Shown in pieces: positions 3,549 to 56,399 of a DNA stretch of 64,000 nucleotides. This DNA is from a virus. A program made the translations under genes and the position numbers. Location of the stretch: the UHGV virus genome UHGV-0332176. One strand, 5' to 3'. Position 1 is the first letter of the stretch, and the number at the start of each line of letters is the position of its first letter. The notes below the pieces were generated by a model, which did no database searches, was not told where the DNA came from, and saw only the letters and a list, made by a program, of their open reading frames with translations.

Positions 3549-3926
3549 ATGGCTGATATAAGTAAAATAGATATGAAAAGAATCAATGGATTACTTGATA
3601 AATTAGAAGAAGTAACCAATAAAATTAATTCAATGAAATATGTTATTGAATCTGGTTCTAATGATAATGGTTGGTATCGTAAATGGAGTGATGGATTTAT
3701 TGAACAATGGGGTTTTCGCACTTCAAATACAACAAACCAAACAATTAATCTTCCAACTTCTTTTTCAAATACATCATATTATGTTAATTTTATTCAATAT
3801 CGTCCATTACAATCTTCTGCTGGTTGGGATTATCATTATGTCATCAGAACATCTGTTACAAAATCATCTTTCCAAATTAATGTTGCTGATACTGATGGAA
3901 TAAATTGGTATGCTTGTGGTTATTAA
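3549..3926 (+). CDS. Small protein, paralogue A of MADISKIDM...WYACGY family (N-terminal coiled-coil-like segment + beta-rich C-terminal domain)
   Basis: A 125-aa ORF with a strong RBS AAAGGGG. Its first ~57 nt and last ~25 nt are near-identical to the gene at 10536-10880, and it shares motifs NNWYR.WSDG.IEQ.G and WYACGY. Confidence 0.6.
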   Translation: MADISKIDMKRINGLLDKLEEVTNKINSMKYVIESGSNDNGWYRKWSDGFIEQWGFRTSNTTNQTINLPTSFSNTSYYVNFIQYRPLQSSAGWDYHYVIRTSVTKSSFQINVADTDGINWYACGY

Positions 3927-6812: not shown

Positions 6813-6843
6813 GATAAAATTAAAAAATATAATAAAAATGCAC

Positions 6844-10880: not shown

Positions 10881-10909
10881 AAAAGAGAGGATTAATCCTC
10901 TCTTTTTTA
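10880..10909. terminator. Bidirectional terminator overlapping nrdD stop codon
   Basis: The inverted repeat AAGAGAGGAT-TA-ATCCTCTCTT is followed by TTTTT. Confidence 0.6.
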
Positions 10910-13045
10910 ACCGTGTAATGAATCATCAATAAATGTTCTACGTTGAAATTCCCAATTTCTTCTTGTTGGATTCCACGAATCAACGGGAACAAAGAAACCA
11001 ACAACACGAGTAAAATATTGCATATGTTCATTATGACCACATTTTGAACAACTTGCAACTTTATGGTCATAAACAGCACCGCATTTTGGACATTTTGAAT
11101 ATACTGAATTTAATACAAAATGTTCACAACCACATTTAATAGCATATAAAATAATTTTTCTATTTTGTGCAGATGTTGTTTTAGAACCCAATTGAGCGTG
11201 AACAATACCGCCACCTGTTAATAATTGATTATATTTGCCATCAGCTTCTAATTTTTCCCAAATAGTTGCATCTTCCCATAATGGAACAAATTGATTAGCA
11301 TATAATGGAGCATCAATAATATTTTCATTGAAAATTAAGTTATCAACAGTTGCTAATCTAACAGCATAAGATTCACCAGGAATTTGTTCAATATTAGAAA
11401 ATAAACCTAATTCTTTTGCATATTCAGCAGAATGTTTATTTAAATATACTAAATAATCATTCATAACATCTTGACCTTCAGTAATTTCATCTGCAAATTT
11501 AGTTTCAAGAATTTTCTTTGCTTCAACAACACCCAAAATACCAAATGTTGAAAATAATCTATCCATACGAATCCAGCCACGAGTAATAAATGGTTCAAGA
11601 CCTTTTTCTTCCATTTTACCAATTAATACTTTATGAGCTTTTAAAACTTTTGCTGCTCCACGAATTCTTTTATCAAGAATATGATAAAAATCCTCTAATG
11701 AATTTGCTTCATAAGCAATACGAGCAAAATTAATAGTTACAACACGGTGAGAACCCATTGAAACAGTTGAACCACCAAATGAATTTACAGAAGAACCCAT
11801 ATCAAGTAATTCAGCATCATTAATTAAACGACAACAAGATGCAACTTTTGTCCCCTTTGAAGTAAAAATATTAAATCTTGTAATATCTCGTTGACATACA
11901 AAATCAAAGAATTTTTCATCTAAAACATTACCTTCATCATCTTTTGATATATTCATAGTTGTAACAGGAAAACGATAAGGAATACCATTATTTAATGGGT
12001 CACCTTTTTCGTGAAATTTAGCATATATTTCTTGTAATTCACTAATATAATTAATGACAAATTCTTTCCATTCATCAGCAGACATCTTATCTTCTAAACC
12101 ATTATCAATAGCAATATCTTTTTTATTTGCAAAATACCATCCATAATTATCTTGACCTATTAAACCAGCTAATTTAACTCTATCAAATAAAGAAATATTA
12201 GTGAATGGAGATTCTACACCATTTCTTGATAAATGGTTTACTGAATGAACAAATGTTTGAAAACAATTTTCAATATATTTTCTCATTTTTGGGTCATTTT
12301 TAACAACTTCAAATGGAACACGTTGTTTATAAATTAAAATATGAGCAATATCAAGGAAAAATGTTCCAACAGCAATAGCACCTGCTAAATGTGAAGACAT
12401 TTGATGAACTGTTTCATCTAATGCTGAAATATAAGAATCAACTCTATGAACTGGTGCAGATGGTAATTGACCAAATTTACGACCTTCAAGAACTAATTTA
12501 GAAGCATCTAATGCCCAGCAGTAAGGAATTAAAATATTTGTAGAATCTGATAAACCTAATGAAAAATCATATAAATCACCTGATAATACTTTTGCTTCAG
12601 CTTGACCATATAAATCTTTCATAACACCATAAAGCATATGATAACCAATTAATTTACGGTTAGAAGCTGTAATTTCATTATTTACACCAGCAATTGTTTT
12701 TTCATTTTTATTAGAATTATCGTCAATAGATACATCATTAACACGAGAATCTAAAATTTTAGCAAAATTTGCCAAGGTATCAAAATTAGTTGCATCTAAT
12801 CCGTGAATTTTTAAAATTTTTGAAGTTAATTCTTTTAATTCACCATTTGAAAAACCATATTTCTTTTTCAATGCTGATGCTAATGTTTTTTTAATATTTT
12901 TAATAGTTCTTGTAGTTTCAGCATTAATTAAAATATCATCAGAAACTTTATCTAATTCTTTCTTAAAATCTTCATCTTCATAATAAGAATCAACAATTGT
13001 TGGACTCTTAACATTTAATATTTTTTTAACTGCCAATTCAGACAT
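10907..13045 (-). CDS. nrdD: Anaerobic ribonucleoside-triphosphate reductase (class III RNR)
   Basis: The C-terminal Zn ribbon CPKCG...CSKCG is followed by the glycyl-radical motif RVVGFF. The internal GGSTVSMGSHRVVTINFARIA aligns with T4 NrdD LGVVTLNLPRIA. Confidence 0.9.
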   Translation of the reverse strand: MSELAVKKILNVKSPTIVDSYYEDEDFKKELDKVSDDILINAETTRTIKNIKKTLASALKKKYGFSNGELKELTSKILKIHGLDATNFDTLANFAKILDSRVNDVSIDDNSNKNEKTIAGVNNEITASNRKLIGYHMLYGVMKDLYGQAEAKVLSGDLYDFSLGLSDSTNILIPYCWALDASKLVLEGRKFGQLPSAPVHRVDSYISALDETVHQMSSHLAGAIAVGTFFLDIAHILIYKQRVPFEVVKNDPKMRKYIENCFQTFVHSVNHLSRNGVESPFTNISLFDRVKLAGLIGQDNYGWYFANKKDIAIDNGLEDKMSADEWKEFVINYISELQEIYAKFHEKGDPLNNGIPYRFPVTTMNISKDDEGNVLDEKFFDFVCQRDITRFNIFTSKGTKVASCCRLINDAELLDMGSSVNSFGGSTVSMGSHRVVTINFARIAYEANSLEDFYHILDKRIRGAAKVLKAHKVLIGKMEEKGLEPFITRGWIRMDRLFSTFGILGVVEAKKILETKFADEITEGQDVMNDYLVYLNKHSAEYAKELGLFSNIEQIPGESYAVRLATVDNLIFNENIIDAPLYANQFVPLWEDATIWEKLEADGKYNQLLTGGGIVHAQLGSKTTSAQNRKIILYAIKCGCEHFVLNSVYSKCPKCGAVYDHKVASCSKCGHNEHMQYFTRVVGFFVPVDSWNPTRRNWEFQRRTFIDDSLHG

Positions 13046-13079: not shown

Positions 13080-13592
13080 TTATTTAAAATAGTATAAACC
13101 ATTTTCACTCAAACAACAATAATTTGAGTCAAAAAGTTTTTGATTAGTTGAAGCAAATTTCATATAATCATCAGTTTTTTCAGAAATTTGTGAAATTTTT
13201 TCATCATATAAACCACATTTTAAAAATGTAAATCCTGTAATATTTAATAATTTTACATATTCAACATCGTGTCCTGTATAAACACAAACTTCAAATGGTG
13301 ATTTTTCCAAAAATTCTTTTGTAAATTGATAATTAAAGCACGATAAAGGGTCGCCACCAGATAGTACAACTTTATTTGTATGATGTCTTTTTGATAAAAT
13401 TAATAATTCATTAATTAATTCATCAACTGTATATTCTTTTGTTTCTTCCTTAAAATCTGGATTTTTAAAACCTGGATTTTGACATTTCGGGCATCCGTTA
13501 TCACAACCCATCATTACAACAACTAAACTACAATTTTCTGTATCAGGATAATCAAGCCAAGTTGAAGTAATTGGTTGTAAAATTCGTGTCAT
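13080..13592 (-). CDS. nrdG: Anaerobic RNR activating enzyme (radical SAM)
   Basis: Carries CDNGCPKCQN (CxxxCxxC). It is ~170 aa and lies immediately downstream of nrdD. Confidence 0.85.
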   Translation of the reverse strand: MTRILQPITSTWLDYPDTENCSLVVVMMGCDNGCPKCQNPGFKNPDFKEETKEYTVDELINELLILSKRHHTNKVVLSGGDPLSCFNYQFTKEFLEKSPFEVCVYTGHDVEYVKLLNITGFTFLKCGLYDEKISQISEKTDDYMKFASTNQKLFDSNYCCLSENGLYYFK

Positions 13593-20106: not shown

Positions 20107-20408
20107 AATTAAAAGATATGAAATTATCACAAATTCGTAAGTTATCTGAATGTTATTGGGTTCAGCATCCAATGCAGTTATATGGAACAAAAGAAACAAA
20201 TAATGCAAAGTATAATAATGCTGCTATATTTCAATTAAATAATGAAAATATATTATATGGAATGAAACATTTTATGTTATATGATGAAGACCATATATTT
20301 ACGACAATAGATGAAGCAATTAATTATTGTAAAGAATATGGTTGGAATTATAGCATTACAAAAAATTATAATTATAAAGGGGATATTGATAATGGTAAAA
20401 ATAATTGA
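20103..20408 (+). CDS. Hypothetical small protein (101 aa)
   Basis: ORF that overlaps the thyX start. Confidence 0.4.
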   Translation: MKLKDMKLSQIRKLSECYWVQHPMQLYGTKETNNAKYNNAAIFQLNNENILYGMKHFMLYDEDHIFTTIDEAINYCKEYGWNYSITKNYNYKGDIDNGKNN

Positions 20409-21108
20409 ACCACACGTTGAAGTTATTTCAGAAATTGATGGTGATAAAATTTTAAAGCAAATTGAAAGATGTGCAAGAAATTGTTATAAATCGGAAGGTA
20501 ATATTTCAGAAGATACAACATCTGCGGTGAAAATGATTAGTAAATTGATTGAATTAAATCATACGGCTATGATTGAATTTGCTGATATTATAGTTAATTT
20601 AATTTGCGATATTGGTGTTTATAAGGATTTAACAAGACATAGACATTGTAGCTTTGCTATTGAGAGCACTAGATATTGTAATTATTCTAAAGGGAAATTC
20701 GGTAATGAAATTTCGGTAATAAAACCTTGTAATATGGATGAAAATTCAGGAATTTATCATACTTGGCTTAAATCTATGACAGATATGGAAAAAGCATATA
20801 TGCAAATGGCAGAATTAGGAGCATTACCAGACCAATTAAGAATGGTTTTACCACATAGTTGTGCTGCATCAGTTATGATGAAAGCAAATATTAGAGAATG
20901 GCGACATATTTTTCAGCTTCGTTGTGCAAAACAAGCTCATCCATCTGTTCGTCAAATTATGTTATTAACTTTAAATGAATTTCATAATAAAATTCCTGTA
21001 TTATTTGATGATTTATTTTCGGAATATAAACAAGATATTATAGATACATATTCTAAATTAGAAACTAATTCTGAAACAGGTATTTTATATTCAAATTCAA
21101 ATTTATAA
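20392..21108 (+). CDS. thyX: Flavin-dependent thymidylate synthase
   Basis: Carries the ThyX signature TRHRHCSFAIESTRY (RHRxxSxxxxSxRY). The start was moved to the ATG at 20392, which follows an AAGGGG RBS. Confidence 0.85.
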   Translation: MVKIIEPHVEVISEIDGDKILKQIERCARNCYKSEGNISEDTTSAVKMISKLIELNHTAMIEFADIIVNLICDIGVYKDLTRHRHCSFAIESTRYCNYSKGKFGNEISVIKPCNMDENSGIYHTWLKSMTDMEKAYMQMAELGALPDQLRMVLPHSCAASVMMKANIREWRHIFQLRCAKQAHPSVRQIMLLTLNEFHNKIPVLFDDLFSEYKQDIIDTYSKLETNSETGILYSNSNL

Positions 21109-23335: not shown

Positions 23336-23347
23336 GATAAAAATTAA

Positions 23348-34362: not shown

Positions 34363-34398
34363 AATCCTTTCAATAAATATCCATTGAAAGGATTTTTT
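34363..34398 (+). terminator. Intrinsic terminator
   Basis: AATCCTTTCAAT-8 nt-ATTGAAAGGATT is followed by TTTTT. The tool TTG start at 34384 lies inside this hairpin. Confidence 0.55.
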
Positions 34399-34950
34399 AT
34401 GGATATTATAGATTCTCGTAGAGTATTTGATGATGACTATGCTAAAATGCGTTATACATTATATATAAAGAAAATTAATACATTATTAGAAAATCATCAA
34501 AAGCCCCATAATAAAAAATATAAACAAGGATTTTTTATTCCAAAACGCCCTTTAAAAGTTATGAATATTATGGAAACAACTGAACCTCAACCAATTGTAT
34601 GGAGAAGTGATTGGGAAAGACAATTATGTGAATGGTTAGATTCTACTGATGCTATTACTAGATGGGGTTCAGAAATTGTTCAAATATTATATCGTGACCC
34701 AACAAAAAATAAAATGTCTTTCTATACTCCTGATTTTTATGTTGAATATTTGGATGCGAATAAAGTTTTAAAAAAAACTATGATTGAAGTTAAACCATTA
34801 AAAGAAGCATCTTTAAAAAAAGCATCAAATGGATGGGATAAAATATTAGTTGCAAAAAATGCTATGAAATGGGTAGCAGCAAATGAATATTGCAAAAAAA
34901 GAGGGATAACATTTAAAGTTATGCACGAGCATAATTTAGGAATTCTTTAA
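34399..34950 (+). CDS. Hypothetical protein; possible PD-(D/E)xK-like motif (TPDFYVEY...MIEVKP)
   Basis: Start moved to the ATG at 34399 (MDIIDSRR...). Confidence 0.45.
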   Translation: MDIIDSRRVFDDDYAKMRYTLYIKKINTLLENHQKPHNKKYKQGFFIPKRPLKVMNIMETTEPQPIVWRSDWERQLCEWLDSTDAITRWGSEIVQILYRDPTKNKMSFYTPDFYVEYLDANKVLKKTMIEVKPLKEASLKKASNGWDKILVAKNAMKWVAANEYCKKRGITFKVMHEHNLGIL

Positions 34951-36447: not shown

Positions 36448-36497
36448 AATTTTTCCAATATAAATATGTTATATTAATATTTATTTAAGGTATAATA

Positions 36498-37016
36498 ATG
36501 ACATCTAAAGCAAAAGTTAAAGGAAATTCTTGGGAAAGAGAATGTGCAAAAGGTTTAAGTAAAATTTTTGGATATAATTTTGAAAGATGCAAAGGTTCTG
36601 GGGCATTTGTCGGTGGGAAAAATAGTATTAGAAAAATTAAATTATCAGAAACACAATTAGTTTCATCAATGGCTGATATTATTCCGCCAACAGAAATGAA
36701 GAATATGGTCGTTGAATGTAAATTTTATAAAGATTTTCCATTTTATATGTTTTTACAAAATAAATCTATTCCTTTAATTGATTCTTGGATTGAACAACAA
36801 TTAGATGTTGTTGATGATATGAATTTTTGGTTTATTGCATTTAAAATAAATCGGGTTGGGAGTTATATAGTTATCCCTGAAAAAATATGTAATTTTATTG
36901 ATGATAGAATTGGAAATCATTCAATATATTATTATAATAATGAAAAATATATTGTTTCTGAATTTTTCCCATTTATAGAATTATATAAAAATGAAATATT
37001 AAAAAAGTCGGCTTAA
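36498..37016 (+). CDS. Hjc/RecU-like Holliday junction resolvase (PD-(D/E)xK)
   Basis: KGNSWERECAKGL...GSGAF...VVECKFYKD...FIAFKINRVGSYIVIPE aligns with archaeal Hjc blocks (KGSNAEREL..., IEVK, AVKF.NVGWRFIE). Confidence 0.5.
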   Translation: MTSKAKVKGNSWERECAKGLSKIFGYNFERCKGSGAFVGGKNSIRKIKLSETQLVSSMADIIPPTEMKNMVVECKFYKDFPFYMFLQNKSIPLIDSWIEQQLDVVDDMNFWFIAFKINRVGSYIVIPEKICNFIDDRIGNHSIYYYNNEKYIVSEFFPFIELYKNEILKKSA

Positions 37017-39070
37017 ATACCGACTTTAATTTTTCCATAATATCCATTTAAAATTACTTTGATAGATTCTTTTGAAATACTATATCCATCATAAGAACTA
37101 ATTTTTTTCTTAATTAATTCATCAGTACCTTTTATTTTATTTCCAGTAAAACGATATAATAAACTTCTGCATAAATTCATAAATGTTGGTCTATTTTTAT
37201 AGAAATTAAAATAAAAATATTCTGGTTTTTGTCCTTGTTTTAAACATTTTAACATAAAATCATATGTTGATGGGTCGCAACTAAATAATACGGTATCTGA
37301 TGATAAAATATATTTAATATCTTCTTGTACTTCACTTAATTTATTTTCATTAATATTTTGTTTTGATTCATTAAATGATATTGGATAATTATATTTGTCA
37401 CCTGTTGAAAAAACTTGATTAACATTATAGCGTTTTTTAGTATCTTTATTAATAATTTTAGTAATTCTTATCGGAGCATTATTTCGTAAACGAATTTCAT
37501 TTTCATCTTCATTAACCATTCTTAATAATATTGAATCATACCAACTAATATTTTTATCAGTTGCTTGTCCAACAAAAATATATGATGTTCCATTATAATC
37601 ACTATTATATGATTCAGCTTTATCATATTGTTTAGCCCAACAATTACCTGTTCCATATTCTTTAAGATGTTGTAATAATTCATTAATAGACAATTTTGTA
37701 TCAATTTCTCTATAAATGTTATTATCAATTAATTCATTTTTAATATTTTGTAAAATATGTTCTGCAGAATTACGATAAATGTCGTCAGTAATTTTAAATG
37801 CTAATGAATTTTGATTGTTCATATTCTTGTATATATAATTTATTGCTTGATTGTATATTTTTTCATATGTATTTTTTAAATGTATTTTGTTATTTTCCAT
37901 TTCATCAATAATAGCATCAAGATAATGGCTATAAGCAAGTTCCGTAAACAAAATGTAATTATTGATTATTTCACCAGTATCCCATCTGTTATTCCTAATA
38001 GCATTAATAACTTTATTAATGACTTGATTTTCTGAATTATCAGGAAGATTTAATTTTTTTCTGTGTTTTGCTTCTACTATAACATTTTCACCATTAAACA
38101 TTTTAATAACTGATTGTTCCATATTCATTCTTGGAAAATATGTTCTTAAAATTTTATTATTATCTAATTTTTTGGCTTGTTCAAGATACCATTTTTTCAT
38201 ATCATTATCAAAATCTTCAGGAATTAAATCATAATCTTGAAAATAAACATTATCATTAAAAGCAAATAAATGAGTTGCATTTTTTACATCATATTCATCT
38301 TCAACATACATATGTAATAATGGAGTGTCTGCTGACCAAATTGCAAATCCTGTTTTTGATAATAAAATACGATACCATTTATTTCTTTTAACAAAATCAT
38401 TAAATTCTTTTTTAGTTGGATTTAATAAAACTTCTGTATCGTCAATATAATCATAAGTTTCATATATATTATTTGAATTGGAATTCCATTCGCCATTATT
38501 ATCAATAGATTTTATTTGATTTGGTTCAAATGCAACCCATACATTATTTTCAGAAAGGTAGATACCATCAAATCCTAAATTTTTTAATATTGCAGTTGTA
38601 TCAATTGTATCATAACCTTTAACATTACGTTCTGGTCTTGACATTTGTAATCCGAAAAATAATTCATATCCTTCAAAGGTTTCAGAATTATTTCCTTCAA
38701 AAATTTTTTGTAAATCTTCATTAGAAATATATTTTTTTAATATGCTTTTTTTATATTTAACTTGATAGCCATAAAAAGGATTTTGAATAGAAAGATAGCA
38801 TTTCATTATTTTATTACCAAATGAGTTTTTCATAAATAAATCATCTTTTGATGAAAAATAAAATCCTTTTCCTTGTAAATTCATTGGATGTGATTTGGTT
38901 ATATCAAATGTATTAAAATCCGATTTTGTTCTGTGAATAACAACTAATGGATTGCCATTTTCATCTACAACCTTGCTATTATTAAACCATTTCCAAAAAT
39001 TATCATTTAATTTATTTTTAGATTTTTGTTTAACTTCTTTAATTAAATTACTATATTTTCCACGATACAT
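37013..39070 (-). CDS. Hypothetical protein (685 aa), likely tail/baseplate-associated by position
   Basis: A large ORF in the same minus-strand block as the gp25-like gene. Confidence 0.45.
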   Translation of the reverse strand: MYRGKYSNLIKEVKQKSKNKLNDNFWKWFNNSKVVDENGNPLVVIHRTKSDFNTFDITKSHPMNLQGKGFYFSSKDDLFMKNSFGNKIMKCYLSIQNPFYGYQVKYKKSILKKYISNEDLQKIFEGNNSETFEGYELFFGLQMSRPERNVKGYDTIDTTAILKNLGFDGIYLSENNVWVAFEPNQIKSIDNNGEWNSNSNNIYETYDYIDDTEVLLNPTKKEFNDFVKRNKWYRILLSKTGFAIWSADTPLLHMYVEDEYDVKNATHLFAFNDNVYFQDYDLIPEDFDNDMKKWYLEQAKKLDNNKILRTYFPRMNMEQSVIKMFNGENVIVEAKHRKKLNLPDNSENQVINKVINAIRNNRWDTGEIINNYILFTELAYSHYLDAIIDEMENNKIHLKNTYEKIYNQAINYIYKNMNNQNSLAFKITDDIYRNSAEHILQNIKNELIDNNIYREIDTKLSINELLQHLKEYGTGNCWAKQYDKAESYNSDYNGTSYIFVGQATDKNISWYDSILLRMVNEDENEIRLRNNAPIRITKIINKDTKKRYNVNQVFSTGDKYNYPISFNESKQNINENKLSEVQEDIKYILSSDTVLFSCDPSTYDFMLKCLKQGQKPEYFYFNFYKNRPTFMNLCRSLLYRFTGNKIKGTDELIKKKISSYDGYSISKESIKVILNGYYGKIKVGI

Positions 39071-41874: not shown

Positions 41875-42900
41875 ATGAAATATATACTATTAACAGATAT
41901 ACATTTTGGTAATCACGGAAATAGTGATGAATTTAATCAAGAATGTAATAATTTTTTAAAATTTGTTGAAAAAACAATTGAAAATAGAGAAGATATTGAT
42001 GGAGCAATTTTTTTAGGAGATTGGTTTCATAATAGAAATTCTATTAATGTAAAAACATTAAAAGCAGGAATAGAAGGTTTATATACATTTGGTTCTATTG
42101 GTCGTGGAAATTCTTATATGATTATTGGCAATCACGATTTATATTATAAAGATAGACGTGATGTAAATAGTATTATTATTCCTGAAGGAGAAATTGGTGT
42201 TAATCTTGTAGAAGAACCAATTTATTTAGAAGAACAAAAATTTTTATTTTTACCTTGGTTAATTAATGAAGAAAAATTAGAAGATTATATTAAACAATAT
42301 AATCCTGAATATGTTTTTGGACATTTTGAAATTCCTTCTTTTTCTTTTAATAAATTAGTTAAAAAAGAAGGTGAATATAATCCTGAAAATTATAAAGGTC
42401 CAAAACGAATTTTATCAGGTCACTTTCATTTAAGGCAAGAAAAAAATAATATTACATATATTGGTAATTGTTTTTCTCACGATTTTTCTGATGTCAATGA
42501 TTGGCATAATAAAGGATTTGCTATTTTAGATACTGATAAAAATTCTTTAGAATATATAGAATGGAATGATGCTCCAAAATATTGTACATTTTCTATTAGT
42601 AAATTAAATAATATTAATTTAAGTAATAATATGTATTTAAAATTGGTGAATGATGTTCAAATGAAACAATTTGAAATTAATCAATTAAAAGAAGAATTAG
42701 AAAAGTTACCAAATATTAATGAATGTTTTATTTATCCAAATGAATTAGAATTAGCAAAAACAATTATTGATAATAAAAAATTAGAACATATTTCAGATAT
42801 TGAAACTTTAATAATTTCATTATTAAATGAATTAACAATGGAAAATATTCAAAATCAAAAATTAGTCAATATATATAAAAATTTACAAATAAATTCTTGA
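41875..42900 (+). CDS. SbcD/Mre11-like nuclease (T4 gp47 analogue)
   Basis: Has calcineurin-like phosphoesterase motifs LLTDIHFG, GDWFHN, GNHD and GHFH. Confidence 0.75.
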   Translation: MKYILLTDIHFGNHGNSDEFNQECNNFLKFVEKTIENREDIDGAIFLGDWFHNRNSINVKTLKAGIEGLYTFGSIGRGNSYMIIGNHDLYYKDRRDVNSIIIPEGEIGVNLVEEPIYLEEQKFLFLPWLINEEKLEDYIKQYNPEYVFGHFEIPSFSFNKLVKKEGEYNPENYKGPKRILSGHFHLRQEKNNITYIGNCFSHDFSDVNDWHNKGFAILDTDKNSLEYIEWNDAPKYCTFSISKLNNINLSNNMYLKLVNDVQMKQFEINQLKEELEKLPNINECFIYPNELELAKTIIDNKKLEHISDIETLIISLLNELTMENIQNQKLVNIYKNLQINS

Positions 42901-42930
42901 CAATATAAATTTAATTTTTATAATGTTAAA
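42897..42930 (+). promoter_or_regulatory. sigma70-like promoter TTGACA-16-TATAAT
   Basis: The region reads TCTTGACAATATAAATTTAATTTTTATAATG. Confidence 0.45.
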
Positions 42931-42959
42931 CGTTAATTATTATAAGGAAATTACTATTT

Positions 42960-43484
42960 ATGTATATTAATAAAAAAGACTATACAGGAGAATCTGCTCG
43001 TATGGGACAAACAGCAGAAGATTTATTTGAAAATTGGCTAAAATTAAATAATAGAAAATATAGGAAAGCAACATTATCTGAACAATTTAAACATATTGAT
43101 TTTATTGTTAATAGTGATAAATTGAAAAAAGAAATTAAAATAGATGTTAAAGCATCAAAAAAAGTTAATAGAAAAGACGAAGCTGAAAATACTAATTTTT
43201 TATGGGTTGAATTTAAAAATGTTCAAGGGAAAAATGGTTGGCTATACGGTGAAAATGATTTTATAGCTTTTCATAAAATAGATGAAAATTGTTTTTATTT
43301 AGTTGAAACAAAAGAATTGGCGAAGTTATGTGAGAAAATTTGTAACCAAGGAAATGCATTATATTCTAAAGATGCATTATATCATAGATATACCAGAAAT
43401 GGAAGAAAAGATGAATTATCAATGATATATTTTGATGATATAAAAAAATGTAATTATAGTATTATAAAATTAGGAGAAAATTAA
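42960..43484 (+). CDS. Hypothetical protein (174 aa); weak PD-(D/E)xK-like pattern (HIDFIV...IDVKASK)
   Basis: ORF with no other motifs. Confidence 0.4.
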   Translation: MYINKKDYTGESARMGQTAEDLFENWLKLNNRKYRKATLSEQFKHIDFIVNSDKLKKEIKIDVKASKKVNRKDEAENTNFLWVEFKNVQGKNGWLYGENDFIAFHKIDENCFYLVETKELAKLCEKICNQGNALYSKDALYHRYTRNGRKDELSMIYFDDIKKCNYSIIKLGEN

Positions 43485-44611
43485 TGACTCAAATCAGAGA
43501 TAGTATTGAATTAGATTTTTGTGATGTTTTATTTAGACCAAAAAGAACAACATTAAATTCAAGAAGTGAAGCAGATGTTATTCGTGAATATAAATTTAAA
43601 TATTATCCAAAAACAATTAAATCTTGTGGTATTATGGCAGCTAATATGGCTACAACAGGAACATTTGATATGAATGATGTTCTTCAAAAATATAAAGCAA
43701 TTACTTGTTTACATAAGCATTATACAGAATATGAAATAAAAAATTATATGACCATAAACAATATGGATGATTATTCTGACCATAATTCATTTACATTTAT
43801 TTCAACAGGTTTGAAAGATGATAAAGAACAGTTGTTTAGATTATTACAAACTGGGTCGCAGATTGATAAGATTTGTATTGATATTGCTAATGGTTATATT
43901 CCAAATTTAATTAATTTTGTTAAAGAAGTTAGAGAAAAATTTCCAAAATCATTGATTATGGTTGGTAATGTTGTTACAGGTGATATGACTCAAGATTTAA
44001 TTCTTAATGGAGCAGATATTGTAAAAGTTGGAATTGGACCTGGTTCTGTATGTACTACTCGTAAATTAACTGGAGTTGGAAGACCTCAATTGTCAGCAAT
44101 TTTAGAATGTGCAGATGCTGCTCACGGTGTTGGTGGTTTAGTCTGTGCAGATGGTGGGTGTACTTGTGCAGGTGATGTTGCAAAAGCATTTGGAGCAGGA
44201 GCAGATTTTGTTATGCTTGGTGGTATGTTTGCTGGTACAGATGAATCTGCTGGTGAAATTATAGAAAAAATGTATAGAACTAATGAATATAAATATCATT
44301 ATTTAACTGATAATTCTATTGAATCCGATAAACCAATTTTTGAGGTTAAGAAATTTAAACAGTTTTATGGAATGTCTTCACAACTTGCCCAAGAAAAGCA
44401 TTTTGGTGGTATGGCAAATTACAGAGCATCAGAAGGTAAAGTTGTTGAAATTCCTTATAAAGGTTCTGTTGAGAATGTCATTCAAGAAATACTTGGTGGA
44501 ATTCGCTCTACAATGTCATATATTGGAGCTAAAAGATTAAAAGATATTCCTAAATGTACAACTTTTTATAGAGTTAATAGACAATTAAATGAAGTTTTTG
44601 GAAAAAGTTAA
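43484..44611 (+). CDS. guaC: GMP reductase (IMPDH/GuaC family) with ~40-aa insertion
   Basis: Aligns nearly end-to-end with E. coli GuaC: [68 protein letters not shown] and GGIRS. An extra segment at ~aa 255-295 is not in E. coli GuaC. Confidence 0.8.
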
Positions 44612-44850
44612 TGAAAATACCGCAAATATCAAATGAATTATATAATACATTAAATCCACAAAATAAAGAAAAACTTTATATTGTAGAAAATCCATCTGAA
44701 TATTCTTTATGGTCATCAACAATAACATATAAAAAAGGTGATAAAGTAAATTATCAAGGTAAAGTTTATATTTGTAAAAATGATGATGTCAATGGTATAT
44801 TTGATATAAAAGATTGGAAAATAGCACCAACATTAAAATTAATTGTATGA
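44611..44850 (+). CDS. Hypothetical small protein (79 aa)
   Basis: ORF with an ATGA overlap. Confidence 0.4.
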   Translation: MKIPQISNELYNTLNPQNKEKLYIVENPSEYSLWSSTITYKKGDKVNYQGKVYICKNDDVNGIFDIKDWKIAPTLKLIV

Positions 44851-44858
44851 GGTTAATA

Positions 44859-46973
44859 ATGGAATTAAATTTTAAAGAAATTAGAATTAGAAACTTTTTA
44901 TCATTTGGAAATGTTGAAGAAATTATTCCATTAAATAAGTGTTTATATCAAGTTATTATTGGTATGAATAAAGATAAGTCTAATTCATCATTAGATAGAA
45001 ATGGTGTTGGTAAATCAACAATTTTTGAAGCCATTCATTATGCTTTGTTTGGAAAATCTATTGGAAATAAAATTACATTAGGTAATTTAATTAATAACAT
45101 TAATAAAAAAAATATGGTTGTAACTCTTGTTTTTGAAAAAAATGGAGTTGAATATACTATTAAAAGAGGACGTTCACCTAATATTTTAATGTTTATGAAA
45201 AATGATGAAGAAATAAATGTTAATGAAGCACAAGGAGATTCCAGAGAAACACAAGTTGAAATTGAAAAAATTTTAGGAATGAATGAAGATGTATATAATC
45301 AAATTGTATGCTTATCTTGCAAAGTTCCAATTTTTAATGACCAAACAACAGCAAACCAAAAGAATATTATTGAACATATTTTAGGTATTAATATCATATC
45401 TGAAAAAATAGATGCATTAAAAGCACTTATTAAAGAAACTAAAAATGAATTTAATAATAAACAATTTGAGTATAATACTATTAAAACTCAAAATGATAAT
45501 TTAATGCAAACAATTAATAATCAAATTGCTGATATGAATACAGCTAAAGAAAAATGGGAAAATGAAATTAAACAACAAATTAATAATGTTGAAAATGTAA
45601 TTTCCCAAATGAAATTGATTGATATTGATACTGAAATTAAAAACTTTCAGTTGCTTGAAAATTATTTAACACAAGAGGGGGTGAATCAACAAAATCAGCA
45701 ACTGAAAGATTCTTTAAATAAACAAATACAAGAAAAAGATATTTTTATTAAAAATTATCAGATTCGTATTGTTGAATTATTGAAATATAATTTTATAGTT
45801 GAACGTCAAAATATTTTTTATAATGAGCAACTTAATAAAGAAAGAATTGCTTATGATATTGAAGAAAATAAATATAAAACTATTAAAAATTTTAAAGAAC
45901 AAAATCTTGATACTAATTTTAAACGTATTGCTAATGAAATTGAAAAAAAAGAAATTGAATTAGCAAATATTAAAGAAAATGTTTGTCCGACTTGTGGTCA
46001 ACCAATGGGAGTTGAAGAAGTTAATAAATTAAAAGAAAGTAAAAAAGAGGAGATTGTTCAACTTCAAAAAGAATTACATAGAATTGATATGGATATTTTA
46101 GAAGCAAACCATACTATTTCTTTATTTGTTCCAAAAGTATTTGAATTTAAACCAGTATCATTTAATGATATGAGTTCATTACTTGAAAAAGAAAATGAGT
46201 TAAATCAATTAAAATTACAATTAGAAAATATTGTTAAAGAAAAAAATGATTTAATTGAACAGGAAAATAAAATTGTTATTGTTGATTTAGGTATTAAACC
46301 ACAGACACATTATTCTAATATTCAAGAAGCATTACAACATCAAGCAACGTTAGAATCATTAGGAATTACTTTAAATAGTTTACAAAAACAATTATTAACA
46401 AATCCTTTTGAACAACAAGAAAAATCTATTGAAGAACTTAAAAAGAATATTCAAGTATTAGATGACGCACCAATTAAACAAATTCAAGATGATTTAAATC
46501 ATCAAGAAGTTTTATTAAAATTGTTAAATAGCCCATCATCTTTTATTAGAACAACAATATTAGAAAAATCATTAGAATTTTTAAATTCTAAAATTATGCA
46601 ATATTTAGCACAATTAGGTTCTTTACATATTGTATCATTTAATAGTGATATGTCATTAACAATTGAATATATGGGTATTCAATATGGTTATGTTTCAACA
46701 GGAGAAATGGGACGTATTACATTAGCATTAACATTAGCATTTAGAGATGTTTGGGAAACATTAAATAATTGTAAAATTAATTTATTTGCAATGGATGAGG
46801 TAATAGACCGTATTGGTTTAGATACTGCTGGAGTTGAAATGACAGTTCAAGCATTGCAAACAAAGGAAGATAAAAATGTTATGTTAGTTACACATAATGA
46901 TACATTAATTAATCAAGCACCACATTTAATGACACTTGTTAAAGAAAATGGGTTTACGGAAATATTAAAATGA
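44859..46973 (+). CDS. SbcC/Rad50-like ATPase (T4 gp46 analogue)
   Basis: Has Walker A DRNGVGKST, a long coiled coil, a CPTCGQP zinc-hook and a C-terminal LFAMDEV D-loop. The start was set at the ATG after a GAGG RBS. Confidence 0.75.
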   Translation: MELNFKEIRIRNFLSFGNVEEIIPLNKCLYQVIIGMNKDKSNSSLDRNGVGKSTIFEAIHYALFGKSIGNKITLGNLINNINKKNMVVTLVFEKNGVEYTIKRGRSPNILMFMKNDEEINVNEAQGDSRETQVEIEKILGMNEDVYNQIVCLSCKVPIFNDQTTANQKNIIEHILGINIISEKIDALKALIKETKNEFNNKQFEYNTIKTQNDNLMQTINNQIADMNTAKEKWENEIKQQINNVENVISQMKLIDIDTEIKNFQLLENYLTQEGVNQQNQQLKDSLNKQIQEKDIFIKNYQIRIVELLKYNFIVERQNIFYNEQLNKERIAYDIEENKYKTIKNFKEQNLDTNFKRIANEIEKKEIELANIKENVCPTCGQPMGVEEVNKLKESKKEEIVQLQKELHRIDMDILEANHTISLFVPKVFEFKPVSFNDMSSLLEKENELNQLKLQLENIVKEKNDLIEQENKIVIVDLGIKPQTHYSNIQEALQHQATLESLGITLNSLQKQLLTNPFEQQEKSIEELKKNIQVLDDAPIKQIQDDLNHQEVLLKLLNSPSSFIRTTILEKSLEFLNSKIMQYLAQLGSLHIVSFNSDMSLTIEYMGIQYGYVSTGEMGRITLALTLAFRDVWETLNNCKINLFAMDEVIDRIGLDTAGVEMTVQALQTKEDKNVMLVTHNDTLINQAPHLMTLVKENGFTEILK

Positions 46974-47713
46974 ATCAATTTGAATTATTAAATGATAATT
47001 GTTTACCAATATTAGATAAATTTATATCTGAAAATCGTAAGGTGGATTGTATTATTACTTCTCCACCTTATAATATGAATCTTAGAGTTATGAAAGGGAA
47101 ATATGTTTCTCGCTGTAATAATAAAAATCATAAAATAGAATTTTCAACAAAATATGAAAATTATAATGATGACCTTTCTATGGAATATTATTTTAATTTT
47201 CAAAAAGAATTTATTGAAAAAGCATTAAAAGTTTCCGATTTAATGTTTTATAATATACAAATGCTAACAGGTAATAAAATAGCTTTATTTAAATTAATGG
47301 GTTATTTTGCAGATAAAATTAAAGAAATTATTATTTGGGATAAAGGTTATGGTCAGCCTGCTATGCAAGTTGGTATGTTAAACAGCCAATTTGAATTTAT
47401 TATTGTATTTGATAATAATAAACCATACAATAGAGCATTTGATTGTGCTAATTTTGCCAGAGGAACTGAAACAAATATTTGGGAAATTAAGCGTGAGAGA
47501 AATAAATTCATTAAAGCTGGGTTTCCAACAGCATTAATTGAAAAAATTTTAGTAAATTTTACAAATGAAAATGATATTATTCTTGACCCTTTTATGGGAA
47601 GTGGAACTTGTGGTATTGTTTGTAAAGAAATGAATAGGAATTTTATTGGAATTGAATTAGATAAAAATATGTTTAAAATTGCAAAAGAGAGAATTGAAAA
47701 TATAAATAAATGA
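46970..47713 (+). CDS. DNA methyltransferase, beta-class amino-MTase (N6-adenine or N4-cytosine)
   Basis: SPPY (motif IV) comes before the C-terminal LDPFMGSGT (motif I). Confidence 0.75.
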   Translation: MNQFELLNDNCLPILDKFISENRKVDCIITSPPYNMNLRVMKGKYVSRCNNKNHKIEFSTKYENYNDDLSMEYYFNFQKEFIEKALKVSDLMFYNIQMLTGNKIALFKLMGYFADKIKEIIIWDKGYGQPAMQVGMLNSQFEFIIVFDNNKPYNRAFDCANFARGTETNIWEIKRERNKFIKAGFPTALIEKILVNFTNENDIILDPFMGSGTCGIVCKEMNRNFIGIELDKNMFKIAKERIENINK

Positions 47714-47729
47714 AATAATAGGATTTAAT

Positions 47730-48359
47730 ATGAAAGTATCAACTTTTTATATGGCAGATATTTCTGAATATGATAATTTTATTGAAAAATTATATAATGA
47801 TATTCAGAAAAAATTTGTTGGAAAAGGTATAAATTCTATTTTAATTAGTCGTTTTATTTCTTATTTAAGAAAAGAATTTTCAATTTATGCATCTTTTAAA
47901 TTAAATAAAAAAACAAATATTATAATTATAATTCCTCGCATATCTACAAATCTTATTGAAAAAACAATTCATAATAATATTGAACAAATTAAAATTCGTG
48001 TTGAATATAATAAATTAAAAGAAATTTTAAGTGGTCAATGTGAAAATTTAGAAGATTATATTAATGAATTAGTTGAACAATTTAAAGAATATGTTATTGA
48101 TAAACCATCATTAAATTTTTCAAAATATCTTTATTTACAAATTGATAATTTAGTTGATATTTGTTATAATGAATTAATTAGTATATATCAATCAAAAATA
48201 ATTTATGAAAATTTAATGAAAAATAAAGGATGGATAATTTTATCCAGAAAGTCATCAATTTTTAATGATTATTATAATTTATTTCAGCAAAATAAAATTG
48301 AAAATAAAAATATTTTTCATAATTTTTTGTATAAATTAGCATTAAAATTAAAGGATTAA
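47730..48359 (+). CDS. Hypothetical protein (209 aa) inside methyltransferase island
   Basis: ORF with no motifs recognised. Confidence 0.45.
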   Translation: MKVSTFYMADISEYDNFIEKLYNDIQKKFVGKGINSILISRFISYLRKEFSIYASFKLNKKTNIIIIIPRISTNLIEKTIHNNIEQIKIRVEYNKLKEILSGQCENLEDYINELVEQFKEYVIDKPSLNFSKYLYLQIDNLVDICYNELISIYQSKIIYENLMKNKGWIILSRKSSIFNDYYNLFQQNKIENKNIFHNFLYKLALKLKD

Positions 48360-48361
48360 TA

Positions 48362-49255
48362 ATGAAAGTGTTGTCATTATTTGACGGCATTGGAACAGGA
48401 AGATTATCATTAGAACGAGCAGGAATAAATGTTGACAAATATTATGCTTCAGAAATTGATAAAAATGCTATAACAATTGCTAAAACAAATTATTCTGATA
48501 TTATTGAATTAGGTTCTGTATTAAATTGGAGAAATTGGGATATTGAATGGAATACCATAGATTTATTAATAGGTGGTTCTCCGTGTACGTCATTTTCTTC
48601 AGCAGGTAAACAACAAGGATTTAATGGAGAATCTAAATTATTTTTTGAATATAGAGATATTTTAAATTATTTAAAATCTATTAATCCTAATATTAAATTT
48701 CTTTTAGAAAATGTTATAATGAAAAAAGAATGGGAAGAAGTCATAACTAACGAAGTTGGTGTGAAACCTATTTTAATTGATAGTTCTTTATTATCTGCTC
48801 AACAAAGAAAAAGAAATTATTGGTTTAATTGGAAAATAGAATATCCTGAAGATAAACATATTGAGTTAAAAGATATTTTAGATAATAAAGACTTTTGTTA
48901 TAAAGCAACAATAGTGGGAAGAAGAATTAATAATAATGGACACAGAGAAGATTATAATAAAGAAATTCCTATCGTTCAATGTTTAGAAGTACGTAAAGCA
49001 AATAGTAATAAAAGTAATTGTTTAACAACTGTTGAAAAAGATAACGTTTTAAGTAATTTATCTTATGGAAGATATGTTGATGCTTTTGGAAAATATAGAA
49101 AAAATTGGACTTATTACTCTTTAAAAGAATATTGTAGATTACAAACTTTACCTGAAAATTATTGTGATTCTGTTCCTGAACATTTGGCTAAAAAAGCCAT
49201 TGGTAATGGTTGGACAGCAGATGTAATAACGCATATATTTAAAGGATTACAATGA
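48362..49255 (+). CDS. DNA (cytosine-5)-methyltransferase
   Basis: Has LFDGIGTG (motif I), GGSPCTSFSSAGK (motif IV), LLENV (motif VI) and a C-terminal AIGNGW. Confidence 0.8.
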   Translation: MKVLSLFDGIGTGRLSLERAGINVDKYYASEIDKNAITIAKTNYSDIIELGSVLNWRNWDIEWNTIDLLIGGSPCTSFSSAGKQQGFNGESKLFFEYRDILNYLKSINPNIKFLLENVIMKKEWEEVITNEVGVKPILIDSSLLSAQQRKRNYWFNWKIEYPEDKHIELKDILDNKDFCYKATIVGRRINNNGHREDYNKEIPIVQCLEVRKANSNKSNCLTTVEKDNVLSNLSYGRYVDAFGKYRKNWTYYSLKEYCRLQTLPENYCDSVPEHLAKKAIGNGWTADVITHIFKGLQ

Positions 49256-49346
49256 CATTTATTTTAAGTTTATTACTTGTTTGCTCATTTATGATGTTTT
49301 GTATATATAAAACAATAAATGATGATGATAAATGGGGATTTTGATA

Positions 49347-50150
49347 ATGGTGAAAATTATTAATGATAAGTATTATACTCCTAAAGATTTGGCAAAAAGA
49401 TTAATAGATACAACTATTAAAGTATTAGTTTATAATGGAGTGAATGATATTGAAGATATTATTGAACCATCAGCAGGAAATGGTGCATTTAGTTCACAAA
49501 TAAAATGTACAGCATATGACATTGAACCAGAATTTAAAGATATTATTAAAGCTGATTTTTTAAAAGAAAATATTGAATATAAAAAGAATAGATTATGTAT
49601 TGGAAATCCGCCTTTTGGAAATTCAAATTCATTATCTGTAAAATTTTATAAAAAATGTTGTGAAATTGGTGATTATATTGCTTTTATTCAACCTATATCG
49701 CAGTTAAATAATAATTTACAAATGTATGAATTTGATTTAATATATTCAGAAGATTTAGGGATAATTCAATATTCAGATAGAAAATTACATTGTTGTTTTA
49801 ATATATATAAACGTCCTAAAAATGGAATTTTAAATGAAAAACCTGATTATACATTAAAAGATATTACTATTAAAGAATATCGCCGTAATGGTTCATATAA
49901 AAAACCTGAAGGATATGATTATGCAATATGTAATTGGGGTAATGGTTCATTGGGAAAAGTTCCTGAATATGTTGGACAATATGCACAAGAAGCATATTTT
50001 TATTGTCATAAATCAGAATTTACAGAACAAATGAAACAATTATTAGAATTTAATACTATTAGGGAATATGTTAATTCTATTTCGGCTAAAAGAATTTCAG
50101 TAATGAGATTGTATAAGTATTTAAAAGATAATATTAAAGGTATAGAATGA
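49347..50150 (+). CDS. N6-adenine DNA methyltransferase (gamma-class, TaqI-like)
   Basis: IEPSAGNGAF (motif I) precedes IGNPPFG (motif IV). The start was moved to the ATG at 49347. Confidence 0.6.
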   Translation: MVKIINDKYYTPKDLAKRLIDTTIKVLVYNGVNDIEDIIEPSAGNGAFSSQIKCTAYDIEPEFKDIIKADFLKENIEYKKNRLCIGNPPFGNSNSLSVKFYKKCCEIGDYIAFIQPISQLNNNLQMYEFDLIYSEDLGIIQYSDRKLHCCFNIYKRPKNGILNEKPDYTLKDITIKEYRRNGSYKKPEGYDYAICNWGNGSLGKVPEYVGQYAQEAYFYCHKSEFTEQMKQLLEFNTIREYVNSISAKRISVMRLYKYLKDNIKGIE

Positions 50151-51007
50151 GTGATTATATAAAATGTCCATTAAGATATACTGGTAACAAATATAAATTG
50201 TTATCACAAATTTTACCACTATTTCCAAAAAATATTAATACTTTTGTTGATTTATTTGCTGGAAGTTATACTGTTGGAATAAATGTTAATGCAAATAATT
50301 ATGTTTGTAATGATATGATAACATATCTTATAGAGTTTTTTGATTTCTTAAAAAATAATGATTTAAACAAAATTTTAGAAACAATAGATAATATTATTGG
50401 AACGTATCAATTATCTAAAACTAATTTAGAAGGTTACAATGCGTTAAGAGAAGTTTATAATCAGACAAAATATCCATTAATTTTGTTTATATTAACTTGT
50501 TTTTCATTTAATCATCAAATAAGATTTAATAATAATCATCAATTTAATTCTTCGTTTGGAAAATATAAAAGTTGTTATAATGATTCAATTAAAAATGATT
50601 TAATAAAATTTACAAAAATTTTAAAAAATCAAAATATTCAATTTTTTAATGGAGATTATAAGGATTGTTTAAATAAACTAGAATTAAATGAAAATGATTT
50701 TGTTTATTTAGACCCACCATATTTAATTTCAACTGCTGCCTATAATGATGGAAACAGAGGATTTAAAATGTGGACGGAAAATGATGAAAAAGAATTGTTG
50801 AATTATTTAGATGAATTAAATAATAAAAATGTTAAATGGGCATTATCAAATGTTTTAGAAAATAATGGCTCTAAAAATGATATTTTATTTGATTGGAGTC
50901 AAAAATATATAGTTCATCATTTAAATTATACATATAATAATTGTAATTATCATAGAAAGAATAAAGGTTCTAATGATAGTGATGAGGTGCTAATTACAAA
51001 TTATTAA
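50147..51007 (+). CDS. dam: Dam-type N6-adenine DNA methyltransferase
   Basis: Has YTGNKYKLL, DLFAGS and YLDPPY. Confidence 0.8.
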   Translation: MSDYIKCPLRYTGNKYKLLSQILPLFPKNINTFVDLFAGSYTVGINVNANNYVCNDMITYLIEFFDFLKNNDLNKILETIDNIIGTYQLSKTNLEGYNALREVYNQTKYPLILFILTCFSFNHQIRFNNNHQFNSSFGKYKSCYNDSIKNDLIKFTKILKNQNIQFFNGDYKDCLNKLELNENDFVYLDPPYLISTAAYNDGNRGFKMWTENDEKELLNYLDELNNKNVKWALSNVLENNGSKNDILFDWSQKYIVHHLNYTYNNCNYHRKNKGSNDSDEVLITNY

Positions 51008-51018
51008 GGATATATTAT

Positions 51019-51606
51019 ATGAAAATATTAAATTTATATGCAGGTATTGGTGGTAATAGAGCATTATGGGAAAATTGTGAAGTTACGGCTGTTGAATTAG
51101 ATGAAAAAATTGCAGATGTTTATAAACATTTATATCCAAATGATAATGTTATTGTTGGAGATGCTTTGAAATATTTAGAAAGTAATTATAACAATTTTGA
51201 TTTTATATGGGCATCACCACCTTGTCAAAGTCACGGGCAATATAGACATAATGTAGGTGTTTTAGGTAAAGGTTTTGCACCAATATTACCAGATATGAGC
51301 TTATATTCAATTATTATTTTTTTAAAGACCTATTATAAGGGAAATTGGTGTGTTGAAAATGTTATTCCATATTATAAGCCACTAATTGAACCAACAGCAA
51401 TTTTACAAAGACATTTATTTTGGAGTAATAAACCGATTGCTAATAAAAAATTTGAAAAAGATGCTATTAGAACAAAAAATAAAATCAGCGATTTTGACAA
51501 TTATGAAGTGGTTGTTAATAGCAAAATTAGTAATAAAAGGCAAGTTTTACGAAATTGTGTTAAACCTGAAATAGGTTTATATATATTGTCTGAAATATTA
51601 AAATAA
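51019..51606 (+). CDS. Short C5-cytosine methyltransferase-like protein (195 aa; motifs I, IV, VI present, no room for a normal TRD)
   Basis: Has LYAGIGG, ASPPCQSHG and WCVENV. Confidence 0.5.
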   Translation: MKILNLYAGIGGNRALWENCEVTAVELDEKIADVYKHLYPNDNVIVGDALKYLESNYNNFDFIWASPPCQSHGQYRHNVGVLGKGFAPILPDMSLYSIIIFLKTYYKGNWCVENVIPYYKPLIEPTAILQRHLFWSNKPIANKKFEKDAIRTKNKISDFDNYEVVVNSKISNKRQVLRNCVKPEIGLYILSEILK

Positions 51607-56369: not shown

Positions 56370-56399
56370 TAATTTATAATAAAAACGGAATATTAATTT

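Follow-up and report, generated by a model that had tools for sequence, protein, structure and literature searches.

GMP reductases of the GuaC type are annotated in several large or T4-like myophages in culture, namely, Xanthomonas phages XacN1 and Xoo-sp13, Stenotrophomonas phages RAS14 and CM1, and Caulobacter phage Cr30, and phage GMP reductases make up PHROG family phrog_9582. A GMP reductase is also mentioned for pelagimyophages, as specific to a deep-water group (PMC7029224). In the open-access literature we found neither an experimental study of a phage GuaC nor a description of the hairpin-extended form of the enzyme presented here. We analyzed a stretch of 64,000 nucleotides (the window) from UHGV virus genome UHGV-0332176, for which a preliminary description had proposed a phage-encoded guaC gene between sbcD and sbcC. 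We have good confidence in the prediction that the open reading frame (ORF) at 43484 to 44611 encodes a catalytically competent, CBS-less GMP reductase of the GuaC type, acting as an auxiliary metabolic gene of a T4-like jumbo phage with an anaerobic gut host.

A CBS-less GMP reductase

An ATG-started ORF of 375 codons was found at precisely the coordinates proposed for the gene. The features of the gene are as follows (all positions are those of the window).

43484..44611, plus strand: guaC, GMP reductase, 375 amino acids, ATG start (NF003470, Pfam, GMPR2 match, AlphaFold and Foldseek)
44030..44062, plus strand: 11-residue active-site loop, amino acids 183 to 193, with catalytic Cys190 and Thr192 (aligned to GMPR2 Cys186 and Thr188)
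44270..44347, plus strand: 26-amino-acid insertion, amino acids 263 to 288, at the β-hairpin turn preceding GMSS (HMMER split and MAFFT)
44432..44434, plus strand: codon of Glu317, counterpart of the catalytic Glu289 of human GMPR2 (alignment of 186 homologues)

The protein aligned almost end to end with GMP reductases, as had been claimed. With NF003470, the NCBIfam equivalog for this enzyme, it scored 494.9 bits (cutoff, 397), residues 3 to 374 matching profile positions 2 to 346 of 347 in one stretch. The Pfam domain shared by IMP dehydrogenase (IMPDH) and GMP reductase (PF00478) covered residues 10 to 365, also in one stretch (E = 9e-67), and a Pfam scan of the protein detected no CBS domain. 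All IMPDH equivalogs remained far under their cutoffs (TIGR01302, 191.4 versus 481.5 bits; NF005311, 143.9 versus 779; NF005493, 110.4 versus 585). By sequence, the closest solved structures were human GMPR2 (2a7r, E = 7e-121; 2bzn) and GMPR1 (2ble), with IMPDHs next (E of about 1e-45).

The functional residues were compared in an alignment of 186 homologues that included Salmonella GuaC (taken from its annotated record) and human GMPR2. The 11-residue catalytic loop singled out in the preliminary description is present, and Cys190, Thr192, and Glu317, equivalent to GMPR2 Cys186, Thr188, and Glu289, were invariant throughout. Of 19 catalytic or ligand-binding positions, 18 carry the same residue in all three proteins (window, Salmonella, and human); the exception is Ser316, where the window protein agrees with the human enzyme while Salmonella has Ala. 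The ligand-binding positions conserved besides the catalytic ones were Asp133, Gly185, Gly187, Ser188, Arg193, Asp223-Gly-Gly, Gly246-Gly, Met297-Ser-Ser, Arg314, Ser316, and Gly318. Most of these 16 noncatalytic positions were invariant too, with Ser188, Gly247, Arg314, and Ser316 varying in a minority of the 186 homologues. The preliminary description had named two findings that would speak against GuaC, best matches to a CBS-containing GuaB or loss of the Cys, Thr, and Glu residues; since the best matches were GMPR2 and GMPR1, no CBS domain was present, and the three residues are all kept, the protein is GuaC. About 60% of the columns were invariant across 29 homologues, which implies purifying selection on the gene.

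Structure prediction gave the same picture. The first AlphaFold model, built from a shallow alignment of 29 sequences at least 77% identical, was unusable (predicted local distance difference test score [pLDDT] of 49.3), and a profile search to deepen the alignment recovered mainly the same close homologues plus nine sequences at 54 to 62% identity. The second model (monomer, 44 sequences) reached a mean pLDDT of 80.6 and a predicted template modeling (TM) score of 0.84. Searched with Foldseek against the PDB, it matched GMPR2 and GMPR1 best (E of 3e-41 to 1e-38, target TM scores of 0.90 to 0.92), followed by IMPDH catalytic domains (E of about 1e-29). The equivalog score, the CBS-less (β/α)8 barrel, and the catalytic and GMP-binding residues place the protein in type 1 GuaC, and the scores under cutoff and the missing CBS pair place it outside the IMP dehydrogenases.

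A variable hairpin extension

The preliminary description had reported an insertion of about 40 residues, around a quoted string of 36, without a counterpart in Escherichia coli GuaC. The insertion is real when compared to the Salmonella and human enzymes, but it is shorter. HMMER breaks the GMPR2 alignment into query residues 3 to 262 and 289 to 374, with the flanking GMPR2 residues adjacent to each other, and MAFFT assigns 26 amino acids (263 to 288) to the window protein versus 2 in Salmonella GuaC and human GMPR2. The last 11 residues of the quoted string are not inserted, as they align with KKYKLFYGMSS of GMPR2 and are thus matched in ordinary GuaC. The site could be placed with the structure model, as had been proposed: it is the turn of a β-hairpin immediately before the GMSS phosphate-binding motif. 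The insert is modeled as an extension of this hairpin, the first of the "finger" preceding the motif, with lengthened strands at 259 to 269 and 284 to 294 (block pLDDT of 81 to 84) and a tip modeled with lower confidence (about 65). It lies some 160 residues away from what we take to be the position of the CBS pair in IMPDH. An intein or other mobile element was ruled out at this site; the insert has only 26 amino acids, its flanks continue the β-strands, and splicing motifs are absent.

The label "lineage-specific" did not hold, since the nearest bacterial homologues have an insert at that same site, as do numerous further bacteria and viruses. Insert lengths were 18 to 23 amino acids in the closest cellular homologues (gut Alphaproteobacteria), 18 to 21 in Elusimicrobiaceae, and 18 in Acholeplasmataceae, Mycoplasmatota, and Izemoplasmatales; GTDB matches with inserts at this site (18 to 23 amino acids) also included Myxococcota and Bacillota metagenome-assembled genomes (MAGs). 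The GuaCs of cultured phages Cr30 and XacN1 have 1 to 3 amino acids there. Inserts of at least 16 amino acids were found in 22 of the 80 best GTDB matches versus 70 of the 80 best IMG/VR matches (16 to 33 amino acids in the latter), both figures being biased upward because the samples were ranked by similarity to an insert-bearing query.

The inserts are highly diverse, with 59 distinct versions among 120 close homologues and lengths of 25 to 48 amino acids in the phage-type set. Their centers cannot be aligned, while the flanks are conserved, (M/C)(Y/F)(K/R)TNE at the start and YE(V/I) at the end. Over 6.7 kb, two contigs (L172 and L173) share >99% identity with the window, and their sole diverged stretch is a patch of ca. 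300 bp (about 44180 to 44480) centered on the insert. The isolation of this patch in near-identical contigs, together with the match of the L173 patch to the insert type of another phage lineage (L002), indicates short-patch recombination. As a control, we compared homologues that are 89 to 93% identical outside the insert: insert identity was about 0.48 in both the phage-type and the cell-type sets, and the sole difference was that length changes were commoner in the former. As the insert diverges equally fast in cell-type homologues, the simplest reading of these sequences is that the tip is a weakly constrained surface loop and not a phage-specific adaptive feature. The same control weakened a diversity-generating or arms-race reading of the insert.

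A cargo gene between SbcD and SbcC

The window also contains genes for a tail sheath protein, a gp25-like baseplate protein, and a T4-type terminase domain, which confirm that guaC is phage encoded, and further genes for an NAD-dependent ligase, helicases, several DNA methyltransferases, and an RNA ligase. The terminase large-subunit match (3923 to 4999, minus strand) comprises only the N-terminal ATPase domain in an ORF of 358 amino acids, and this gene may be split or interrupted. The identical GuaC protein was found on 260 contigs, the longest of 288,741 bp. In nr it is already deposited as [quoted passage not shown] and a relative with 84% identity is the "GMP reductase, Myoviridae sp. ctWb16." Megablast of the region 41875 to 46973 against the 50,697 phage records of INPHARED came back empty; close relatives of the phage, cultured or deposited, are therefore missing from that collection. 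The gene behaves as a phage auxiliary metabolic gene: virus genes lie on both flanks, the cellular homologues are chromosomal, and the synteny is kept in IMG/VR and Logan contigs of up to 289 kb. The genes and the promoter-like site around it are listed below.

41875..42900, plus strand: SbcD/gp47-like nuclease subunit, 341 amino acids (Pfam Metallophos, E = 2.3e-7; PHROG phrog_100, "SbcD-like subunit of palindrome specific endonuclease," E = 1.7e-56)
42897..42924, plus strand: sigma-70-type promoter-like site, TTGACA-16-TATAAT, overlapping the SbcD stop codon and preceding orf174-guaC-orf79
42960..43484, plus strand: orf174, 174 amino acids, no assigned function, stop overlapping the guaC start (TAATG)
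44611..44850, plus strand: orf79, small protein with a CBM_5_12-like motif (Pfam, E = 6.5e-7, 29.7 bits, cutoff 26.2), start overlapping the guaC stop
44859..46973, plus strand: SbcC/gp46/Rad50-like ATPase, 704 amino acids from the ATG at 44859 (phrog_77, E = 9.5e-93; Pfam AAA_23, SMC_N, and Rad50 zinc hook)

The sbcC-like gene probably starts at 44859; in an orthologue, gene callers place the start at the equivalent ATG, which gives 704 amino acids. Both guaC junctions, with orf174 and with orf79, are TAATG sequences in which stop and start overlap by one base.

As the preliminary description had it, guaC and two small ORFs split the SbcD/SbcC pair; the ORFs have 174 and 79 amino acids. Relatives whose SbcD is 82% identical keep the order SbcD, orf174, GuaC, small ORF, SbcC, methylase. 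GuaC is absent from two more distant contigs (L177 and L178; SbcD 57% and gp25-like protein 54% identical), where an ORF of about 70 amino acids alone separates SbcD from SbcC, and from more than 15 distant relatives, in which SbcC begins about 350 to 600 bp past the end of the SbcD match. Because the pair is nearly adjacent in these GuaC-less relatives, guaC appears to have been inserted between them. In contig L168, the gap holds GuaC, a 360-amino-acid Fer4_20/Pyr_redox_2 (GltD/NfnB-like) protein, and a 73-amino-acid ORF, and in a different phage (L171, held by NCBI within the bacterial MAG assembly GCA_045577945.1) the same GuaC and GltD-like pair adjoins the anti-CBASS gene acb1 and baseplate genes. 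Another contig (L169) matches the window at about 100% identity until about position 43680, 200 nucleotides into guaC, and at about 80% thereafter. By these comparisons of gene order, guaC is a movable cargo in a variable SbcD-SbcC slot.

In L177 (3458 to 3919) and L178 (7083 to 7544), SbcC itself is interrupted past residue 53, within Walker A, by about 460 bp (…NGIGK|C… …FVSHN|S…). The boundaries are mini-intein-like, and in these assemblies the frame seems to be disrupted.

The GltD-like gene of L168 (8125 to 9207) and L171 (8122 to 9213) encodes a protein of about 360 amino acids with Fer4_20 and Pyr_redox_2 domains, resembling the iron-sulfur flavoproteins GltD, NfnB, and PreT, and follows guaC through a TAATG overlap. 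The two copies are 70% identical to each other and sit in two different phage backgrounds. This protein is a possible NADPH-linked partner for GMP reductase. A copy in the window was searched for by tblastn, and none was found. The recurrence of GuaC beside this gene in related phages and the hairpin-extended subfamily are by-products of the analysis that could deserve a small follow-up.

orf174 was found in L002, L169, and L172 to L176 and was absent from L168 and L171; among close relatives it is 86 to 100% conserved, and it is translationally coupled to guaC. It had no match in PHROG or PDB and gave only subthreshold matches in family searches (HYExAFE family, E = 2.6e-4; MjaI restriction endonuclease, E = 0.007), and it has a D47…D62-x-K64 pattern that resembles PD-(D/E)xK nucleases. 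It could be a mobile nuclease traveling with the guaC cargo. A paralogous relationship to the PDDEXK_15 gene at 36498 to 37016 was ruled out (BLASTP E of 0.12). The position of orf79 is filled differently in relatives, by an unrelated ORF of 90 amino acids in L002 and by the GltD-like oxidoreductase plus the 73-amino-acid ORF in L168.

Origin of the gene

The best cellular matches were in gut and rumen Alphaproteobacteria MAGs, with 77 to 79% identity overall and 84 to 85% outside the insert. Three of them (P0106, P0098, and P0113; 77 to 79%) lie in chromosomal settings, next to genes for ribosomal protein L17 or S10, DinB, GlgB, AsmA, or Dxs. In GTDB, Alphaproteobacteria MAGs (77 to 78%) were followed by Elusimicrobiaceae (58 to 66%), and ordinary GuaCs of about 346 amino acids were about 52% identical. 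A neighbor-joining tree was built from Kimura distances with numpy (341 columns, insert removed, 300 bootstrap replicates). The cellular Alphaproteobacteria formed a clade with 100% support, this clade grouped with the phage sequences at 80%, and both joined Elusimicrobiaceae at 100%. The preliminary description had suggested a phylogeny to see whether the gene is host derived; the nearest cellular kin are gut and rumen Alphaproteobacteria, but a bacterium-to-phage direction is not supported by nesting.

GC content at third codon positions (GC3) was 0.109 in the phage guaC, close to sbcD (0.058) and sbcC (0.095) and unlike the bacterial guaC (0.319); the GC contents of the whole genes were 0.30 (phage) and 0.38 (bacterial). 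As its GC3 resembles that of its phage neighbors, unlike that of the bacterial gene, guaC can be regarded as a long resident of the phage lineage. Taken together, these sequences are read as horizontal exchange of guaC within the gut bacterial community, probably with the host lineage, in either direction. Gut Alphaproteobacteria are thereby a candidate host for this abundant, uncultured human-gut phage of about 289 kb; tRNA genes were sought as host clues, and the window contains none.

The Alphaproteobacteria MAG GuaCs themselves (L081 to L087) group with those of Elusimicrobiaceae (L088 to L096) with 100% bootstrap. Another alphaproteobacterial GuaC (L126; 51% identity, without the insert) falls outside that group. 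This pattern suggests that hairpin-extended GuaC has passed between phyla of gut anaerobes.

Expression and putative metabolic role

The promoter-like site at 42897 is the only 12-of-12 consensus match between 41300 and 47800, as judged by consensus match alone, and the 82% relatives L174 and L176 retain its TTGACA at the corresponding position. Perfect TTGACA-16-TATAAT matches numbered 2 in the whole window versus 0.21 expected, the second being located at 56353 to 56380 (plus strand), just 5′ of an ORF starting at 56400. A search for intrinsic terminators found none. With this predicted sigma-70-like promoter and the overlapping junctions, orf174, guaC, and orf79 are probably cotranscribed.

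The GC content of the window is 24.4%, lower than the 28% or so given in the preliminary description, and its A:G demand is 3.1, versus 1.93 for the bacterial locus of the candidate host. The genes of nucleotide metabolism mentioned in the same description are indeed present.

20311..21108: ThyX
10907..13045, minus strand: NrdD
13080..13592, minus strand: NrdG-like radical-SAM (S-adenosylmethionine) gene, the activase

The predicted reaction is GMP + NADPH → IMP + NH4+ + NADP+. During infection, guanine nucleotides present in excess, whether released from host RNA or drawn from the nucleotide pool, would be diverted to IMP, which host PurA and PurB would then turn into AMP, and the purine supply would thereby be matched to a genome needing A and G at about 3.1:1. 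In this role, GuaC would act alongside ThyX and NrdDG, the anaerobic ribonucleotide reductase, to shift recycled nucleotides toward A and T. If active, it would be the purine-side counterpart to the pyrimidine-side adjustments (ThyX and dCMP/dCTP deaminases) of AT-rich phages.

Several observations weigh against parts of this interpretation. The purine-rebalancing role, drawn from base composition and the co-occurrence of ThyX and NrdDG, is plausible; GuaC acts on GMP and not on dGMP, so it would not directly recycle the breakdown products of host DNA, and neither purA nor purB turned up in the 64 kb covered by the window, the other ca. 225 kb of the ca. 289-kb genome lying outside it. As a caveat, the GuaC-bearing phages XacN1 and Cr30 are not AT rich. 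Regarding identity, the older GMP reductase model TIGR01305 gave 442.4 bits, under its cutoff of 492.15, in two stretches, because the insert splits the alignment. In the tree, phage GuaC monophyly received only 14% bootstrap, and the phage sequences branched beside the bacterial clade and not from within it, which argues against taking either the direction of transfer or the host as settled. Finally, promoter-like sites as a whole were not enriched in the window (59 versus 61.8 in shuffles).

Alternative explanations

Two related proposals would give the insert a function of its own. According to one, which we consider unlikely, the hypervariable insert is an interface for oligomerization or regulation, partner docking, or a diversifying surface, in a "long-finger" GuaC favored in viruses. 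The other, doubtful to the same degree, treats long-finger GuaC (extension of 18 to 48 amino acids) as a distinct, virus-preferred subfamily in which the hairpin alters oligomerization or allostery or docks a partner, making the enzyme a portable guanine-to-adenine module for AT-rich phages; that partner could in some phages be the coupled GltD/NfnB-like flavoprotein, regenerating NADPH in anaerobes, and recombination at the tip could reflect selection and not drift. The frequency of long inserts among the best IMG/VR matches, their diversity in sequence and length, the patch confined to the insert in otherwise near-identical contigs, the conserved flanks modeled as β-strands, and the translational coupling to the flavoprotein gene in L168 and L171 are all compatible with such a function. 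However, the equal divergence in cell-type homologues fits a weakly constrained loop, the 70 of 80 comes from a search whose query itself bears an insert, the GltD-like gene is absent from the window, and model confidence drops at the hairpin tip.

A role in counterdefense or host takeover, in which draining GMP, GDP, and GTP would lower (p)ppGpp or GTP-derived cyclic-nucleotide signals (e.g., those of CBASS) instead of serving DNA supply, appears very improbable. It is favored by L171, an unrelated phage contig where guaC lies directly downstream of acb1 (6412 to 6930, Pfam E = 8.6e-30), and by the takeover-type genes of the window, such as an ART-PolyVal ADP-ribosyltransferase and many DNA methyltransferases. 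Yet its sole support is this adjacency in one relative, the neighbors of guaC in the window and in close relatives are DNA repair and replication genes, GMP reductase lowers GMP and only indirectly GTP, and GuaC carries no fused defense-related domain. The proposal that the ORF encodes a GuaB-like IMP dehydrogenase, or that it is a passenger gene in decay and of no use to the phage, can start from the shared fold and from IMPDH models that reach an E value of 2.5e-56. These equivalogs score only 110 to 191 bits against cutoffs of 481 to 779, GMP reductases score 250 to 300 bits higher, and the CBS domain is absent; as for decay, the reading frame is intact with 19 functional positions conserved, GC3 is fully phage-like, and guaC has been kept in hundreds of contigs and in several phage lineages that have diverged from one another. 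On these sequence data, the proposal is effectively refuted, and a functional GMP reductase of the phage is the reading that we retain.

Other features of the window

ThyX is followed directly downstream (21174 to 25710) by three paralogues of the radical-SAM/SPASM type (447, 400, and 390 amino acids), the first two of which are separated by an unannotated ORF of 273 amino acids. A run of methyltransferases follows SbcC (46970 to 51606), with an N4/N6 type at 46970, a C5 type at 48362, and a Dam-like D12 class at 50147; at 51019, the match of a 195-amino-acid ORF to a C5 methylase is confined to the N-terminal portion of the latter. The density of this run suggests heavy antirestriction methylation in the phage. 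A takeover- or defense-like cluster (34384 to 39070) includes a TnsA-like endonuclease domain (34384), a nucleotidyltransferase (34936, minus strand), a phage PDDEXK_15 nuclease (36498), and the ART-PolyVal ADP-ribosyltransferase (685 amino acids; 37013 to 39070, minus strand).

Comparison with known GMP reductases

The window protein shares with enterobacterial GuaC (Salmonella/E. coli type) and with human GMPR1 and GMPR2 (2a7r, 2bzn, 2c6q, 2ble, and 2bwg) the CBS-less (β/α)8 barrel, 48 to 53% identity, the Cys-Thr-Glu residues, a common 16-residue motif, and the GMSS motif. These enzymes have a two-residue β-turn (ER-DG-KK) where the window protein has 26 amino acids, and the hairpin extension is absent from every solved GMP reductase that matched, so that a widespread subfamily lacks a solved structure among them. 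IMP dehydrogenase (GuaB) has the same barrel fold and Cys-loop chemistry but carries a CBS/Bateman subdomain and a long flap, while the window protein has no CBS domain. IMPDH also has a β-hairpin finger at the position equivalent to the window hairpin.

The GuaCs of gut and rumen Alphaproteobacteria (P0106, P0098, and P0113; SIG44, SIG58, and RUG772) are much closer, with 372 to 375 amino acids and an insert at the same site that begins similarly, (x)(x)(Q/E)TN(E/Q). They differ in their housekeeping chromosomal context, higher GC, inserts of 18 to 23 amino acids with other tips, and a clade of their own with 100% support. The cultured-phage enzymes, in contrast, are only 37 to 42% identical and lack the hairpin insert, and their genes are next to RNA ligases and hypothetical proteins and not to SbcCD. 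Given that their hosts are not AT rich, the AT-bias argument has no obvious application to these enzymes.

The preliminary description had called guaC a rare auxiliary metabolic gene for a phage. It is uncommon but known, being annotated in XacN1, Xoo-sp13, RAS14, and Cr30, with at least 596 IMG/VR stretches encoding a relative and the protein itself in nr. Neither the purine-side role nor the candidate host alters current concepts, as phage GMP reductases were already annotated and the insert is inherited and weakly constrained. The gene is an ordinary, correctly recognized auxiliary metabolic gene, and its product is the first GuaC of its phage lineage to be examined closely and a member of the hairpin-extended subfamily.

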